Shown here: piece after piece, positions 62 through 4,122 of the stretch
Layout of the letters: every line of letters starts with the position of its first letter
Position numbering within the stretch: position 1 is the stretch's first letter
Source of the DNA: Escherichia phage Qbeta
Strand: one strand, 5' to 3'
Sequence record: FJ483842.1
Length of the DNA: 4,218 nucleotides
Made by a program: the position numbers and the translations under genes
Notes under the pieces: generated by a model
Seen by the model: only the letters and a program-made list of their open reading frames with translations
The model's database searches: none
What the model was told of the DNA's origin: nothing

Positions 62-1324
62 ATGCCTAAATTACCACGTGGTCTGCGTTTCGGAGCCGAT
101 AATGAAATTCTTAATGATTTTCAGGAGCTCTGGTTTCCAGATCTCTTTATCGAATCTTCCGACACGCATCCGTGGTACACACTGAAAGGTCGTGTGTTGA
201 ACGCTCACATGGATGACCGCTTACCTAATGTAAGTGGTCGCCAAGTACGGCGTACTCCACATCGCGCTACTGTTCCGATTGCCTCTACAGGCCTTCGTCC
301 AGTAACAACCGTTCAGTATGATCCCGCAGCACTATCGTTCTTATTGAACGCTCGTGTTGATTGGGATTTCGGTAATGGCGACAGTGCGGACCTTGTCATT
401 AAAGACTTTGTTTTCCGTACCTTTGCACCTAAGGATTTCGATTTCTCGAATTCCTTAGCTCCTCGTTATACCCAGGCCTTCTCCGCCTTTAATGCCAAAT
501 ATGGCGTTATGATCGGTGAAGGGCTCGAGACTATAAAATATCTCGGGCTTTTACTGCGCAGACTGCGTGAGGGTTACCGCGCTGTTAAGCGCGGCGATTT
601 ACGTGCTCTTCGCAGGGTTATCCAGTCTTACCATAAAGGTAAATGGAAACCGACTACTGCTGGTAATCTCTGGCTTGAATTTCGTTATGGCCTTATGCCT
701 CTCTTCTACGACATCAGAGATGTTATGTTAGATTGGCAGAGCCGCCATGATAAGATTCAACGCCTCCTTCGATTTTCAGTTGGTCATGGTGAGGACTACG
801 TTGTCAAGTTTGACAACTTGTATCCCGCCTTAGCCTACTTTAAACTGAAAGGTGAGATTACTCTCGAACGCCGTCATCGTCATGGCATATCTTACGCGAA
901 TCGCGAAGGATATGCTGTTTTCGATAACGGTTCCCTTCGGCCTGTGTCCGATTGGAAGGAACTTGCCGTCGCGTTCATCAATCCTCACGAAGTTGCTTGG
1001 GAGTTAACTCCTTACAGCTTCGTTGCCGATTGGTTTTTGAACGTTGGCGACATACTTGCTCAGCAAGGTCAGCTATATCATAATATCGAGATCGTAGATG
1101 GTTTCGACAGACGTGACATACGGTTCAAATCATTCACTATTAAAGGTGAACGAAATGGACAGCCTGTTAACGTATCTGCGGACTTATCTACTATCGATAC
1201 ATTTTATAGTCGACTTCATGCTAGCAATATTCCGTTCGCTACACTAGATCTCGATACTACCTTTAGTTCGTTTAAACACGTCCTAGATAGTATCTTTTTA
1301 TTAACCCAACGCATTAAGCGTTGA
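62..1324 (+). CDS. A2: Maturation protein A2 (pilus attachment protein; in Qbeta also the lysis protein, a MurA inhibitor)
   Basis: ORF of 420 aa, ATG at 62 preceded by a Shine-Dalgarno-like AAGAGGA, TGA stop at 1322..1324. It is the first gene, as in the levivirus order maturation - coat - replicase. The protein (MPKLPRGLRFGADNEILNDFQELWFPDLFIESSDTHPWYTLKGRV...) matches my recollection of Qbeta A2 along its whole length, with scattered substitutions; Qbeta A2 is also 420 aa. Confidence 0.93.
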   Translation: MPKLPRGLRFGADNEILNDFQELWFPDLFIESSDTHPWYTLKGRVLNAHMDDRLPNVSGRQVRRTPHRATVPIASTGLRPVTTVQYDPAALSFLLNARVDWDFGNGDSADLVIKDFVFRTFAPKDFDFSNSLAPRYTQAFSAFNAKYGVMIGEGLETIKYLGLLLRRLREGYRAVKRGDLRALRRVIQSYHKGKWKPTTAGNLWLEFRYGLMPLFYDIRDVMLDWQSRHDKIQRLLRFSVGHGEDYVVKFDNLYPALAYFKLKGEITLERRHRHGISYANREGYAVFDNGSLRPVSDWKELAVAFINPHEVAWELTPYSFVADWFLNVGDILAQQGQLYHNIEIVDGFDRRDIRFKSFTIKGERNGQPVNVSADLSTIDTFYSRLHASNIPFATLDLDTTFSSFKHVLDSIFLLTQRIKR

Positions 1325-1345
1325 AACTTTGGGTCAATTTGATCA
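1250..1345 (+). promoter_or_regulatory. Probable S-site region (S1/replicase binding site upstream of the coat start), including a U-rich tract near 1290..1310
   Basis: Seen in sequence: an A/U-rich stretch (TATCTTTTTATTAA at about 1293..1306) at the 3' end of A2, just upstream of the coat initiation region. Established knowledge: Qbeta replicase binds an S-site at about nt 1247..1346 through ribosomal protein S1, which represses coat translation. The boundaries are taken from the literature by position, not derived from this sequence. Confidence 0.35.
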
Positions 1346-1746
1346 TGGCAAAATTAGAGACTGTTACTTTAAGTAACATCGGGAAAGATGGAAAGCAAAC
1401 TCTGGTCCTCAACCCGCGTGGGGTAAATCCCACTAACGGTGTTGCCTCGCTTTCAGAAGCGGGTGCAGTTCCTGCATTGGAGAAGCGTGTTACCGTTTCG
1501 GTATCTCAGCCTTCTCGTAATCGTAAGAACTACAAGGTCCAGGTTAAAATCCAGAACCCGACCGCTTGTCCTGCAAACGGTTCTTGTGACCCATCCGTTA
1601 CTCGCCAGGCATATGCTGACGTGACTTTTTCGTTCACGCAGTATAGCACCGATGAGGAACGAGCTTTTGTTCGTACAGAGCTTGCTGCTCTGCTCGCTGG
1701 TCCTCTGCTGATCGATGCTATCGATCGACTGAACCCAGCGTATTGA
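1345..1746 (+). CDS. cp: Major coat (capsid) protein
   Basis: ATG at 1345..1347 and leaky TGA stop at 1744..1746 give 133 codons. The translation (MAKLETVTLSNIGKDGKQTLVLNPRGVNPTNGVASLSEAGAVPALEKRVTVSVSQPSRNRKNYKVQVKIQNPTACPANGSCDPSVTRQAYADVTFSFTQYSTDEERAFVRTELAALLAGPLLIDAIDRLNPAY) is near-identical to the Qbeta coat as I recall it, including the two Cys of the disulfide-forming loop. The ORF-track start at 1321 is a TTG that overlaps the A2 stop and is not the true start. Confidence 0.95.
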   Translation: MAKLETVTLSNIGKDGKQTLVLNPRGVNPTNGVASLSEAGAVPALEKRVTVSVSQPSRNRKNYKVQVKIQNPTACPANGSCDPSVTRQAYADVTFSFTQYSTDEERAFVRTELAALLAGPLLIDAIDRLNPAY

Positions 1747-2334
1747 ACATTGCTCATTGCCGGTGGTGGCTCAGGGGAAAACCCCGATCCGGTTGATCCG
1801 GATCCACCGATTGATCCGCCGCCAGGGACAGGTAGTTATACTTGTCCCTTCGCAATTTGGTCTCTGGAAGAGGTTTATGAGCCTCCTACCATTGATCGAC
1901 CGTGGCCTATCTATCGTGCTGTTGAACTCTCGTCTCGCAAGTTTGATGTTGCCCTTGATGATCTCTTGGGTAACACTAAATGGCGTGACTGGGATTCTCG
2001 GCTTAGGTATACCACGTTCCGCGGTTGCCGTGGCAATGGTTATATTGACCTTGATGCGACTTATCTCGCTACTGATCAAGCTATGCTCGATCAGAAGTAC
2101 GATATTCGCACGGGCAAAAGACCTGGTGCCTTTGGCAAAATTGAACAATTTATTTATCTTAAGTCGATAAATGCATATTGTTCTCTCAGCGATATTGCGG
2201 CCTATCACGCCGACGGCGTAATAGTTGGCTTTTGGCGCGATCCATCTAGTGGTGGTGCCATACCGTTTGACTTCACTCAGTTTGATAAGACTAAATGTCC
2301 TATTCAAGCCGTGATAGTCGTTCCTCGTGCTTAG
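1345..2334 (+). CDS. A1: A1 read-through protein (minor capsid protein): coat protein extended through the UGA at 1744..1746, about 329 codons
   Basis: Seen in sequence: the 1750..2334 ORF is in the same frame as the coat, and only the single TGA at 1744..1746 separates them. The stop is followed by A (UGA-A, a leaky context). The extension begins with a Gly/Pro-rich linker (GGGSGENPDPVDPDPPIDPPPGTGS) and ends ...CPIQAVIVVPRA, followed by tandem stops TAG TAA (2332..2337). Established knowledge: Qbeta A1 arises from low-frequency read-through of the coat UGA by tRNA-Trp and is needed for infectivity. Confidence 0.85.
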
Positions 2335-2348
2335 TAACTAAGGATGAA

Positions 2349-2368
2349 ATGCATGTCTAAGACAGCAT
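2349..2368 (+). promoter_or_regulatory. Replicase translational operator hairpin (coat-protein binding site) enclosing the replicase start codon
   Basis: Seen in sequence: ATGCATGTCTAAGACAGCAT folds as an 8-bp stem (2349-2352 and 2354-2357 pairing with 2361-2368), with a bulged A at 2353 and a 3-nt loop UAA (2358..2360). The replicase ATG (2353..2355) lies inside the stem. Established knowledge: this is the architecture of the Qbeta operator through which coat protein dimers repress replicase translation. Confidence 0.7.
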
Positions 2369-4122
2369 CTTCGCATAACTCTCTTAGCGCACAATTGCGC
2401 CGAGCTGCGAACACAAGAATTGAGGTTGAAGGTAACCTCGCACTTTCCATTGCCAACGACTTAATGTTGGCATATGGTCAATCGCCATTTAGTTCTGAGT
2501 CTGAGTGTATTTCACTCAGCCCGAAATTCGACGGAACCCCGGATAACTTTAGGATAAATTATCTTAAAGCCGAGATCATGTCGAAGTATGACGATTTCAG
2601 CCTAGGTATTGATACCGAAGCTGCTGCATGGAAGAAGTTTCTAGCAGCAGAGGCTGAATGTGCTTTAACGAACGCTCGTCTCTATAGACCTAACTACAGT
2701 GAGGATTTCAATTTCTCACTGGGTGAGTCGTGTCTTCACATGGCTCGCCGAAAAATAGTTAAGTTGATAGGAGATGCTCCGTCCGTTGAGGGTATGTTGC
2801 GTCATTGCCGATTTTCTGGCGGTGCCACAACAACGAATAACCGTTCATATGGTCATCCGTCCTTCAAGTTTGCGCTTCCACAAGCGTGTACGCCTCGGGC
2901 TTTGAAATATGTTTTGGCTCTTAGAGCTTCAACGCATTTCGATATCAGAGTTTCTGATATTAGCCCTTTTAATAAAGCAGTTACTGTACCAAAGAACAGT
3001 AAAACCGATCGCTGTATTGCTATCGAACCCGGTTGGAATATGTTTTTCCAATTAGGTATCGGTGGCATTTTACGTGATCGGTTGCGTTGTTGGGGTATCG
3101 ACCTGAATGATCAGACGATAAACCAGCACCGCGCTCACGAGGGCTCCGTTACTAATGATTTAGCAACGGTTGATCTCTCAGCGGCAAGCGATTCTATATC
3201 TCTTGCTCTCTGTGAGCTCTTATTACCTCCAGGTTGGTTTGAGGTCCTTACGGATCTCAGATCACCTAAGGGGCAATTGCCTGACGGTAGTGTTATTACC
3301 TATGAGAAAATTTCTTCCATGGGTAATGGTTACACATTCGAGCTCGAGTCGCTTATTTTTGCTTCTCTCGCCCGTTCCGTTTGTGAGATACTGGACTTAG
3401 ACTCATCTGAGGTCACTGTTTACGGAGATGACATTATTTTGCCATCCCGTGCAGTCCCTGCTCTTCAGGAAGTCTTTAAGTATGTTGGTTTTACTACCAA
3501 TACTAAAAAGACTTTCTCTGAGGGGCCGTTCAGAGAGTCGTGCGGTAAGCACTACTATTCTGGCGTAGATGTTACTCCCTTTTACATACGTCGCCGCATA
3601 GTGAGTCCTGCCGATTTAATATTGGTTTTGAATAACCTATATCGGTGGGCCACGATTGACGGCGTATGGGATCCTAGAGCCCATTCTGTATATCTCAAGT
3701 ATCGTAAGCTGCTGCCTAAACAGCTGCAGCGTAATACTATACCTGATGGTTACGGTGATGGTGCTCTCGTCGGATCGGTCTTGATCAATCCTTTCGCGAA
3801 AAACCGCGGGTGGATCCGGTATGTTCCGGTGATCATAGACCATACAAGGGACCGAGAACGCACTGAGTCAGGATCGTATCTCTACGATCTTTTCTCGCGC
3901 TGCTTCTCGGAAAGTAACGATGGGTTGCCTCTAAGGGGTCCGTCGAGTTGCGATCCTGTATATCCACTTGCCATAGATCAGCTTATATGTAAGAGTAATC
4001 CTACAAAAATAAGCAGATCTACTGGTAAGTTTGATGTACAGTATATCGCGTGCAGTAGCCGTGTTCTGGCACCCTACGGGGTCTTCCAGGGCACGAAGGT
4101 TGCGTCTCTACACGAGGCGTAA
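2353..4122 (+). CDS. rep: RNA-dependent RNA polymerase, replicase beta subunit
   Basis: ORF ending at TAA 4120..4122. Starting at ATG 2353 (AGGA at 2341..2344, 8 nt spacer) gives 589 aa, the size of the Qbeta beta subunit; the in-frame ATG at 2344 would add MKC but sits on top of the SD. Catalytic motifs are intact: motif A Asp at 3172..3174 (VDLSAASD) and motif C YGDD at 3421..3432. The sequence MSKTASSHNSLSAQLRRAANTRIEVEGN... matches my recollection of Qbeta replicase, with substitutions. Confidence 0.95.
   Translation: MSKTASSHNSLSAQLRRAANTRIEVEGNLALSIANDLMLAYGQSPFSSESECISLSPKFDGTPDNFRINYLKAEIMSKYDDFSLGIDTEAAAWKKFLAAEAECALTNARLYRPNYSEDFNFSLGESCLHMARRKIVKLIGDAPSVEGMLRHCRFSGGATTTNNRSYGHPSFKFALPQACTPRALKYVLALRASTHFDIRVSDISPFNKAVTVPKNSKTDRCIAIEPGWNMFFQLGIGGILRDRLRCWGIDLNDQTINQHRAHEGSVTNDLATVDLSAASDSISLALCELLLPPGWFEVLTDLRSPKGQLPDGSVITYEKISSMGNGYTFELESLIFASLARSVCEILDLDSSEVTVYGDDIILPSRAVPALQEVFKYVGFTTNTKKTFSEGPFRESCGKHYYSGVDVTPFYIRRRIVSPADLILVLNNLYRWATIDGVWDPRAHSVYLKYRKLLPKQLQRNTIPDGYGDGALVGSVLINPFAKNRGWIRYVPVIIDHTRDRERTESGSYLYDLFSRCFSESNDGLPLRGPSSCDPVYPLAIDQLICKSNPTKISRSTGKFDVQYIACSSRVLAPYGVFQGTKVASLHEA
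2545..2870 (+). promoter_or_regulatory. Approximate M-site (internal replicase binding site) within the replicase gene
   Basis: Established knowledge only: in Qbeta the M-site lies at about nt 2545..2867. It is placed here by positional homology, since the window appears collinear with Qbeta with a +1 offset. I did not fold this region and cannot confirm the branched structure. Confidence 0.3.
2973..2980 (+). other. Candidate upstream partner of the long-range pseudoknot with the 3'-terminal hairpin loop
   Basis: Seen in sequence: TAAAGCAG (2973..2980) can pair antiparallel with CTGCTTTG (4196..4203) in the loop of the 3'-terminal hairpin, 7 Watson-Crick pairs plus one G-U. Established knowledge: Qbeta needs a pseudoknot between the 3' hairpin loop and a sequence about 1200 nt upstream, near the M-site; the distance here is about 1220 nt. 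Confidence 0.45.

Follow-up and report, generated by a model that had tools for sequence, protein, structure and literature searches.

A new Qβ isolate with the classic replicase operator: a coat-binding hairpin on the replicase start codon, with initiation at the second of two in-frame AUGs

The hairpin bound by the coat protein of phage Qβ was reportedly described by Lim, Spingola and Peabody in 1996 and by Rumnieks and Tars in 2014. A shared logic is seen in the operator of MS2/R17 (Emesvirus), i.e., a coat dimer binds a hairpin at the replicase start codon, represses translation and nucleates assembly. In MS2 the stem is 7 bp long and the loop 4 nt, and the AUG lies at the 3′ foot of the hairpin. 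In both the MS2 and Qβ operators a purine of the stem is unpaired and a loop adenine is critical (PMC3561173, PMC12724129); the two differ in loop size and stem length (PMC12724129). The essential features of the Qβ operator are an 8-bp stem and a 3-nt loop, the last adenine of which fills an adenine pocket in the coat protein and is required (PMC12724129). The complex of this operator with the coat protein has been crystallized (PDB 4L8H, cited by PMC12724129 and PMC11724954); in this structure the bulged A stacks on coat residue Tyr89 (PMC11724954). N58, R59, K63, and Y89 are named as the residues that contact RNA (PMC11724954). Ribosomes moving along the coat gene open up the replicase start (PMC2978339), and excess coat protein later binds to the replicase cistron and represses it (PMC2978339, PMC6526423). 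The hairpin at the replicase initiation codon serves as the operator and is likely also an encapsidation site (PMC3561173), and the Qβ virion has 33 stem-loops in like contact with coat dimers, the operator among them (PMC10610835). The mechanism of repression and coupling is already stated in the literature (PMC2978339, PMC3561173, PMC10610835, PMC6526423).

[quoted passage not shown] Its end-to-end identity is 95.7% to Qβ strain VK (FJ483843) and ~92% to laboratory Qβ, and IMG/VR includes two environmental contigs that share 97% identity with it. We compared the replicase start region across Qβ strains, M11, MX1, SP, NL95, three FI strains, and the metagenomic sequence MAVO01000019; of these, SP, NL95, and FI belong to Qubevirus faecium, and the replicases of Qβ and SP share only 56% identity. 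The IMG/VR and JGI metagenomes contained near-identical Qβ contigs, copies of SP and FI, and two MAVO contigs, and added little diversity. The minus strand of the window contains only short mechanical ORFs, with nothing relevant among them. The genes of the window follow the order that is usual for such phages, and the features used in our analysis are as follows.

Positions 62-1324, plus strand: gene for the A2 maturation protein
Positions 1345-1746, plus strand: coat protein gene, encoding the operator-binding, trans-acting repressor (match to Qβ coat chains at E = 1e-80)
Positions 1592-1612, plus strand: coat-gene segment complementary to the replicase leader, from the minimum-energy fold of 1300-2500
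Ending at position 2334, plus strand: A1 read-through protein, with stop codons UAG UAA at 2332-2337
Positions 2325-2347, plus strand: upstream hairpin, a predicted fold; the same two-hairpin layout is found in eight lineages
Positions 2339-2344, plus strand: Shine-Dalgarno sequence UAAGGA, the full extent of the anti-16S complementarity, 8 nt from AUG 2353
Positions 2344-2346, plus strand: upstream in-frame AUG, overlapping the Shine-Dalgarno sequence, with a spacer of zero
Positions 2349-2368, plus strand: replicase translational operator hairpin, from the fold, the pair probabilities, the published identity, and the covariation
Positions 2349-2360, plus strand: out-of-frame mini-ORF AUG CAU GUC UAA, inside the operator, with the loop UAA as its stop
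Positions 2353-4122, plus strand: replicase (beta subunit) coding sequence, 589 aa from the second ATG, from the annotation of relatives and conservation

Positions 2349-2368 read AUGCAUGUCUAAGACAGCAU and fold as ((((.((((...)))))))) at -5.7 kcal/mol, with 2349-2352 paired to 2365-2368 and 2354-2357 paired to 2361-2364 (8 bp), and with a loop formed by U2358, A2359, and A2360. This 20-mer is letter-for-letter the published Qβ RNA operator, and the 8-bp stem and 3-nt loop described for that operator are both present in the window (PMC12724129). A single bulged A (A2353, the first base of the initiator) lies between the fourth and fifth pairs, the last loop base is the adenine expected by the coat adenine pocket (A2360), and the initiation codon, AUG 2353-2355, falls inside the hairpin. 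Our preliminary description of this region had claimed an 8-bp hairpin with a bulged A and a UAA loop, having the form of a coat-binding operator, and both the structure and this form are borne out by the fold, by the identity of the 20-mer with the Qβ operator, and by the presence of a cognate coat protein with its contact residues. Compared with the Qβ operator, the window has the same 20 nt, stem, bulge, loop, AUG position, and flanking leader, and a near-identical coat protein; the element itself shows no differences, and only the genome that hosts it is a different isolate. We therefore regard the element as already known: what the new isolate carries is the classic replicase operator of Qβ. 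Unlike the MS2 operator, the hairpin in the window has a 3-nt loop, 8 bp, and the AUG in its 5′ arm; membership of the MS2/R17 type was rejected on loop size and stem length, and we consider the two to work alike while being of different types.

The coat protein encoded in the window matches Qβ coat chains, including that of 4L8H, with E = 1e-80 and five substitutions, none of which touches N58, R59, K63, or Y89, all four being retained. Coat binding and repression, which the literature establishes for the identical RNA of Qβ, would carry over to this isolate. The hairpin persists in every folding context tried, with pair probabilities of 0.66-1.0 in contexts of 120-1200 nt and of 0.8-1.0 at 400-1200 nt. 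The free hairpin is nevertheless marginal when compared with shuffled sequences (z = -2.4, with 7 of 200 shuffles folding equally well). The preliminary description had called the start codon "sequestered" in this hairpin: a hairpin does lie on the AUG, but this wording is slightly strong, given the weakness of the free hairpin, in which no pair involves the A of the AUG. It had also assigned to the hairpin the shut-off of replicase synthesis, which the literature supports; since the free hairpin is weak, repression would come from the bound coat dimer, and not from hairpin stability or sequestration alone.

Conservation of this hairpin extends across the eight Qubevirus lineages compared. In all of them the loop has the form NAA, being either UAA or AAA with U or A as its first base, and the upper stem UGUC/GACA and the initiator AUG are found at the same place, with a mismatch in SP as the exception. 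The two lowest pairs covary, being AU/UA in Qβ, UA/AU in SP and FI, AA/UU in NL95, UU/AA in FI4184b, and CG/UA in M11 and MX1, so that 2 of the 8 operator pairs show compensatory change and the structure is kept by such change among relatives. When the alignment was scored, 98.4% of operator cells were paired, compared to 16-44% with the partner columns slid, and the covariation score was reached by none of 500 shuffles. The synonymous alternatives to the stem codons AAG and ACA are never used in these lineages. At least 61 of ~68 records of the Qβ clade share an identical 50-nt start region, even though the genomes differ by ~8%.

Several lineages depart from the Qβ geometry. For example, the operators of M11 (2348-2369) and MX1 (2347-2368) have two extra nucleotides on the 3′ side relative to Qβ, and because of these the predicted fold pairs the A of the AUG with a U and has a C bulging opposite, giving 9 bp at -8.3 kcal/mol; this would be a variant geometry of the Qβ-type operator. 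In phage SP (2438-2457), an upper-stem U is replaced by C (codon 2 is CCA, Pro, compared to UCN, Ser), which breaks one pair and leaves a predicted hairpin of only -1.8 kcal/mol; the closely related FI strains retain the U. The metagenomic sequence MAVO01000019.1 (1730-1790) encodes a coat protein 86% identical to that of the window and combines the UAAGGA of Qβ with a lower stem of the SP type (UAGC/GCUA), and from its sequence looks like an intermediate lineage.

Variants are also present among Qβ stocks. The laboratory stock "QB_ancestral" (GQ153931) and two lines evolved in the laboratory (GQ153929 and GQ153930) have a G at the position of A2353, i.e., a GUG initiator together with a bulged G in the operator; a third evolved line, GQ153928, has an A at this position. 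A literature search for the publication behind GQ153931 did not find it. Since the GUG stock is viable, the bulged A and the AUG are not strictly essential, and a bulged A is not universal, being G in GQ153929-31 and predicted to be paired in M11 and MX1. A clone from a 5-azacytidine-mutagenized Qβ population (KC137682) has a U to A change at the equivalent of position 2368, by which the lowest A-U pair is lost.

With very high confidence we read this hairpin as the operator that controls replicase translation in a Qβ-type phage, with the start at AUG 2353. This reading draws here on the identity of the operator sequence, its fold and covariation, the conservation of the start codon, and the conserved coat protein, with coat binding and repression taken from the literature. 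Under this reading, UAAGGA would guide ribosomes to AUG 2353, located 8 nt downstream, with the A of this codon predicted to be bulged and its U and G to be held in the stem of a weak 8-bp hairpin. As coat protein accumulates, a dimer would bind the hairpin by recognizing the stem geometry and the final adenine of the loop, and the bound dimer would exclude the 30S subunit, so that replicase synthesis would stop. The same coat-operator complex would double as a high-affinity site for packaging and assembly. Two further layers, made of RNA only, would lie upstream, i.e., the conserved hairpin at 2325-2347 and probably a long-range pairing with 1592-1612, these being mutually exclusive, and via either of them translation of the replicase would need ribosomes to traverse the coat gene first.

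The alternative that fares best is that the hairpin is mainly a signal for packaging and the nucleation of assembly, with translational repression incidental to it. We consider this improbable, because the hairpin lies exactly on the initiator in every lineage, where its stem costs synonymous freedom in the first four codons, and there would be no need for a pure packaging signal to lie across the AUG. In any case the literature assigns both roles to this hairpin, and they are not exclusive.

As claimed in the preliminary description, two in-frame ATGs are present 9 nt apart, at 2344-2346 and 2353-2355. The AGGA at 2341-2344 is separated from the second ATG by an 8-nt spacer (2345-2352), and overlaps the first, with the last A of AGGA being the A of ATG 2344. 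An automated list of open reading frames does mis-start the gene at 2344, which lengthens the product from 589 to 592 aa. The second ATG, which had been proposed as the initiator, is supported in this role by annotation, conservation, and spacing, and although the upstream in-frame AUG is real, the "ambiguous" start suggested earlier is ambiguous only for a naive ORF caller. ATG 2353 is the annotated replicase start in all 15 GenBank relatives that we checked, including the original replicase mRNA entry (X14764, annotated "(AA 1-589)"), and it is the sole start conserved genus-wide, i.e., in every Qubevirus lineage compared. Replicase chains in the PDB also align from MSKTASS, which is weak and not independent evidence, because these are recombinant constructs and their start is the choice of the depositors. 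On database annotation and comparative evidence, the in vivo N-terminus of the replicase would lie at ATG 2353.

AUG 2344 is found in the Qβ clade only, and is absent from M11, MX1, SP, NL95, FI, and MAVO01000019, where the corresponding site reads GGAGAU.. or GGAUUAGC with an in-frame stop further upstream. Unlike the Qβ clade, M11, MX1, SP, NL95, and FI have a GGAG Shine-Dalgarno sequence and no upstream ATG. The Qβ Shine-Dalgarno sequence is the weaker one, with a duplex to the 3′ end of 16S RNA of -5.8 kcal/mol, compared to -8.2 to -8.8 kcal/mol for the GGAG of M11, MX1, SP, and FI. In none of the folding contexts is AUG 2344 predicted to be free (unpaired probability 0.00-0.09); this codon has neither a usable Shine-Dalgarno distance, nor an accessible AUG, nor the conservation of a functional start, and is probably not an initiator. 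The mini-ORF at 2349-2360, whose AUG is out of frame, begins 4 nt after the Shine-Dalgarno sequence and occurs only in the Qβ clade; its AUG is missing in M11 and MX1 (CUGC), SP and FI (UAGC), NL95 (AAGC), and FI4184b (UUGC), and it is probably a by-product of the stem sequence.

It is conceivable that AUG 2344 and the out-of-frame AUG 2349 act as back-up or decoy initiation sites that tune replicase output, e.g., in stocks with a GUG initiator (GQ153929-31). The GUG variant is the only observation that gives the upstream AUG room for such a role, and we think a tuning function of this kind very unlikely. Translation that begins at AUG 2344 itself, adding Met-Lys-Cys to the replicase, or the use of both AUGs, appears less likely still. 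This codon is in frame with no stop between it and 2353, it is kept in every Qβ-clade record that we examined, and the viability of a laboratory stock with GUG at the downstream start makes an upstream back-up start conceivable; however, E. coli normally initiates at GUG as well, and among the three evolved lines one reverted to AUG. The overlap of AUG 2344 with the Shine-Dalgarno sequence, which leaves no spacer, and its low unpaired probability also count against its use, the lineages without it have an upstream in-frame stop and no alternative start, and no database record uses a start at 2344.

A hairpin of the operator form, i.e., two all-Watson-Crick helices of 4 bp separated by a 1-nt bulge and closed by a 3-nt loop with A as its last base, has a chance expectation of 0.013 per dinucleotide-shuffled 4218-nt genome, and in the window such a hairpin is found exactly on the start codon. 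That this is a chance stem-loop, conserved merely through the N-terminal peptide MSKT, can be dismissed with near certainty: the upper stem and loop are coding, and protein constraint could add to their invariance, but in addition to the low chance expectation, the 5′ arm of the lower stem is non-coding yet covaries with codons 5-6, third codon positions in the stem are invariant while the loop position varies, and the sequence is identical to the RNA crystallized with coat protein. The sole other perfect hairpin of this form in the genome, at 2543-2562 (AUAACUUUAGGAUAAAUUAU), has an all-AU stem, a bulged C, and the loop GGA. We rejected it as a second operator, since it is not the local minimum-energy fold, and regard it as due to chance or, at best, as an "operator-like" loop; outside the Qβ clade no homologous hairpin was located, the peptide motif that served to find it being unmatched in M11, MX1, SP, NL95, and FI. 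Rfam contains no family for the operator, and the only match in a scan of the window (E ≤ 1) was to the miRNA model MIR9560, which is spurious (25.5 bits, against a gathering threshold of 74).

In the predicted hairpin at 2325-2347, upstream of the operator, the A1 stop codons UAG UAA fall within the 5′ arm and the loop, and the 3′ arm contains the Shine-Dalgarno sequence together with the first AUG, which this hairpin would sequester. When the lineages are compared, both partners differ in 5 of the 7 inner pairs. The minimum-energy fold of 1300-2500 pairs the leader with the coat gene: CAUCC at 1592-1596 with GGAUG at 2342-2346, GUUACU at 1597-1602 with AGUAAC at 2333-2338, and 1607-1612 with 2327-2332. 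This duplex has an energy of -17.0 kcal/mol in the window and involves coat codons from Pro-Ser-Val-Thr onward; in M11 the pairing forms a continuous 12 bp with changed (compensatory) bases, at -19.0 kcal/mol. Genome-wide, 1592-1612 is the best non-local partner of the leader in the window, Qβ, and M11, and the third best in MX1, although it beats the next best by only ~2.4 kcal/mol. In SP and NL95 no such pairing could be found at the homologous site, and we therefore make no claim for it across the genus.

The pairing of 1592-1612 with 2327-2346 is a candidate for a long-range closure of the start site, which would be opened by ribosomes translating the coat gene. A comparable pairing between the coat gene and the replicase start is the Min Jou interaction of MS2, and the candidate in the window would likewise make the replicase depend on translation of the coat protein. 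By analogy with this interaction, and with moderate support, the long-range pairing would be the physical basis of coat-replicase coupling; compared with the Min Jou interaction of MS2, the Qβ partners given here are computed, and their support is likewise moderate. The local hairpin at 2325-2347 and the long-range pairing are probably mutually exclusive. A reason for the extra AUG may also lie here, again with moderate support: Qβ would carry GGAUG because this sequence serves both as the complement of the coat CAUCC and as part of the Shine-Dalgarno sequence, so that AUG 2344 would be a by-product confined to the Qβ clade.

These findings bear on the annotation of Qβ-type genomes, in that the replicase starts at 2353 and not at 2344, and a naive six-frame call adds three false residues (MKC) in genomes of the Qβ clade. 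They also serve as a positive control, as a textbook RNA operator was correctly recovered from sequence alone. Coat-mediated shut-off of the replicase, the packaging signal, and the coupling to coat translation have long been established; to these our analysis makes small additions, i.e., evidence from across the genus that the base pairs of a start region with two hairpins covary, and a coat-gene segment as the candidate partner of the replicase leader.
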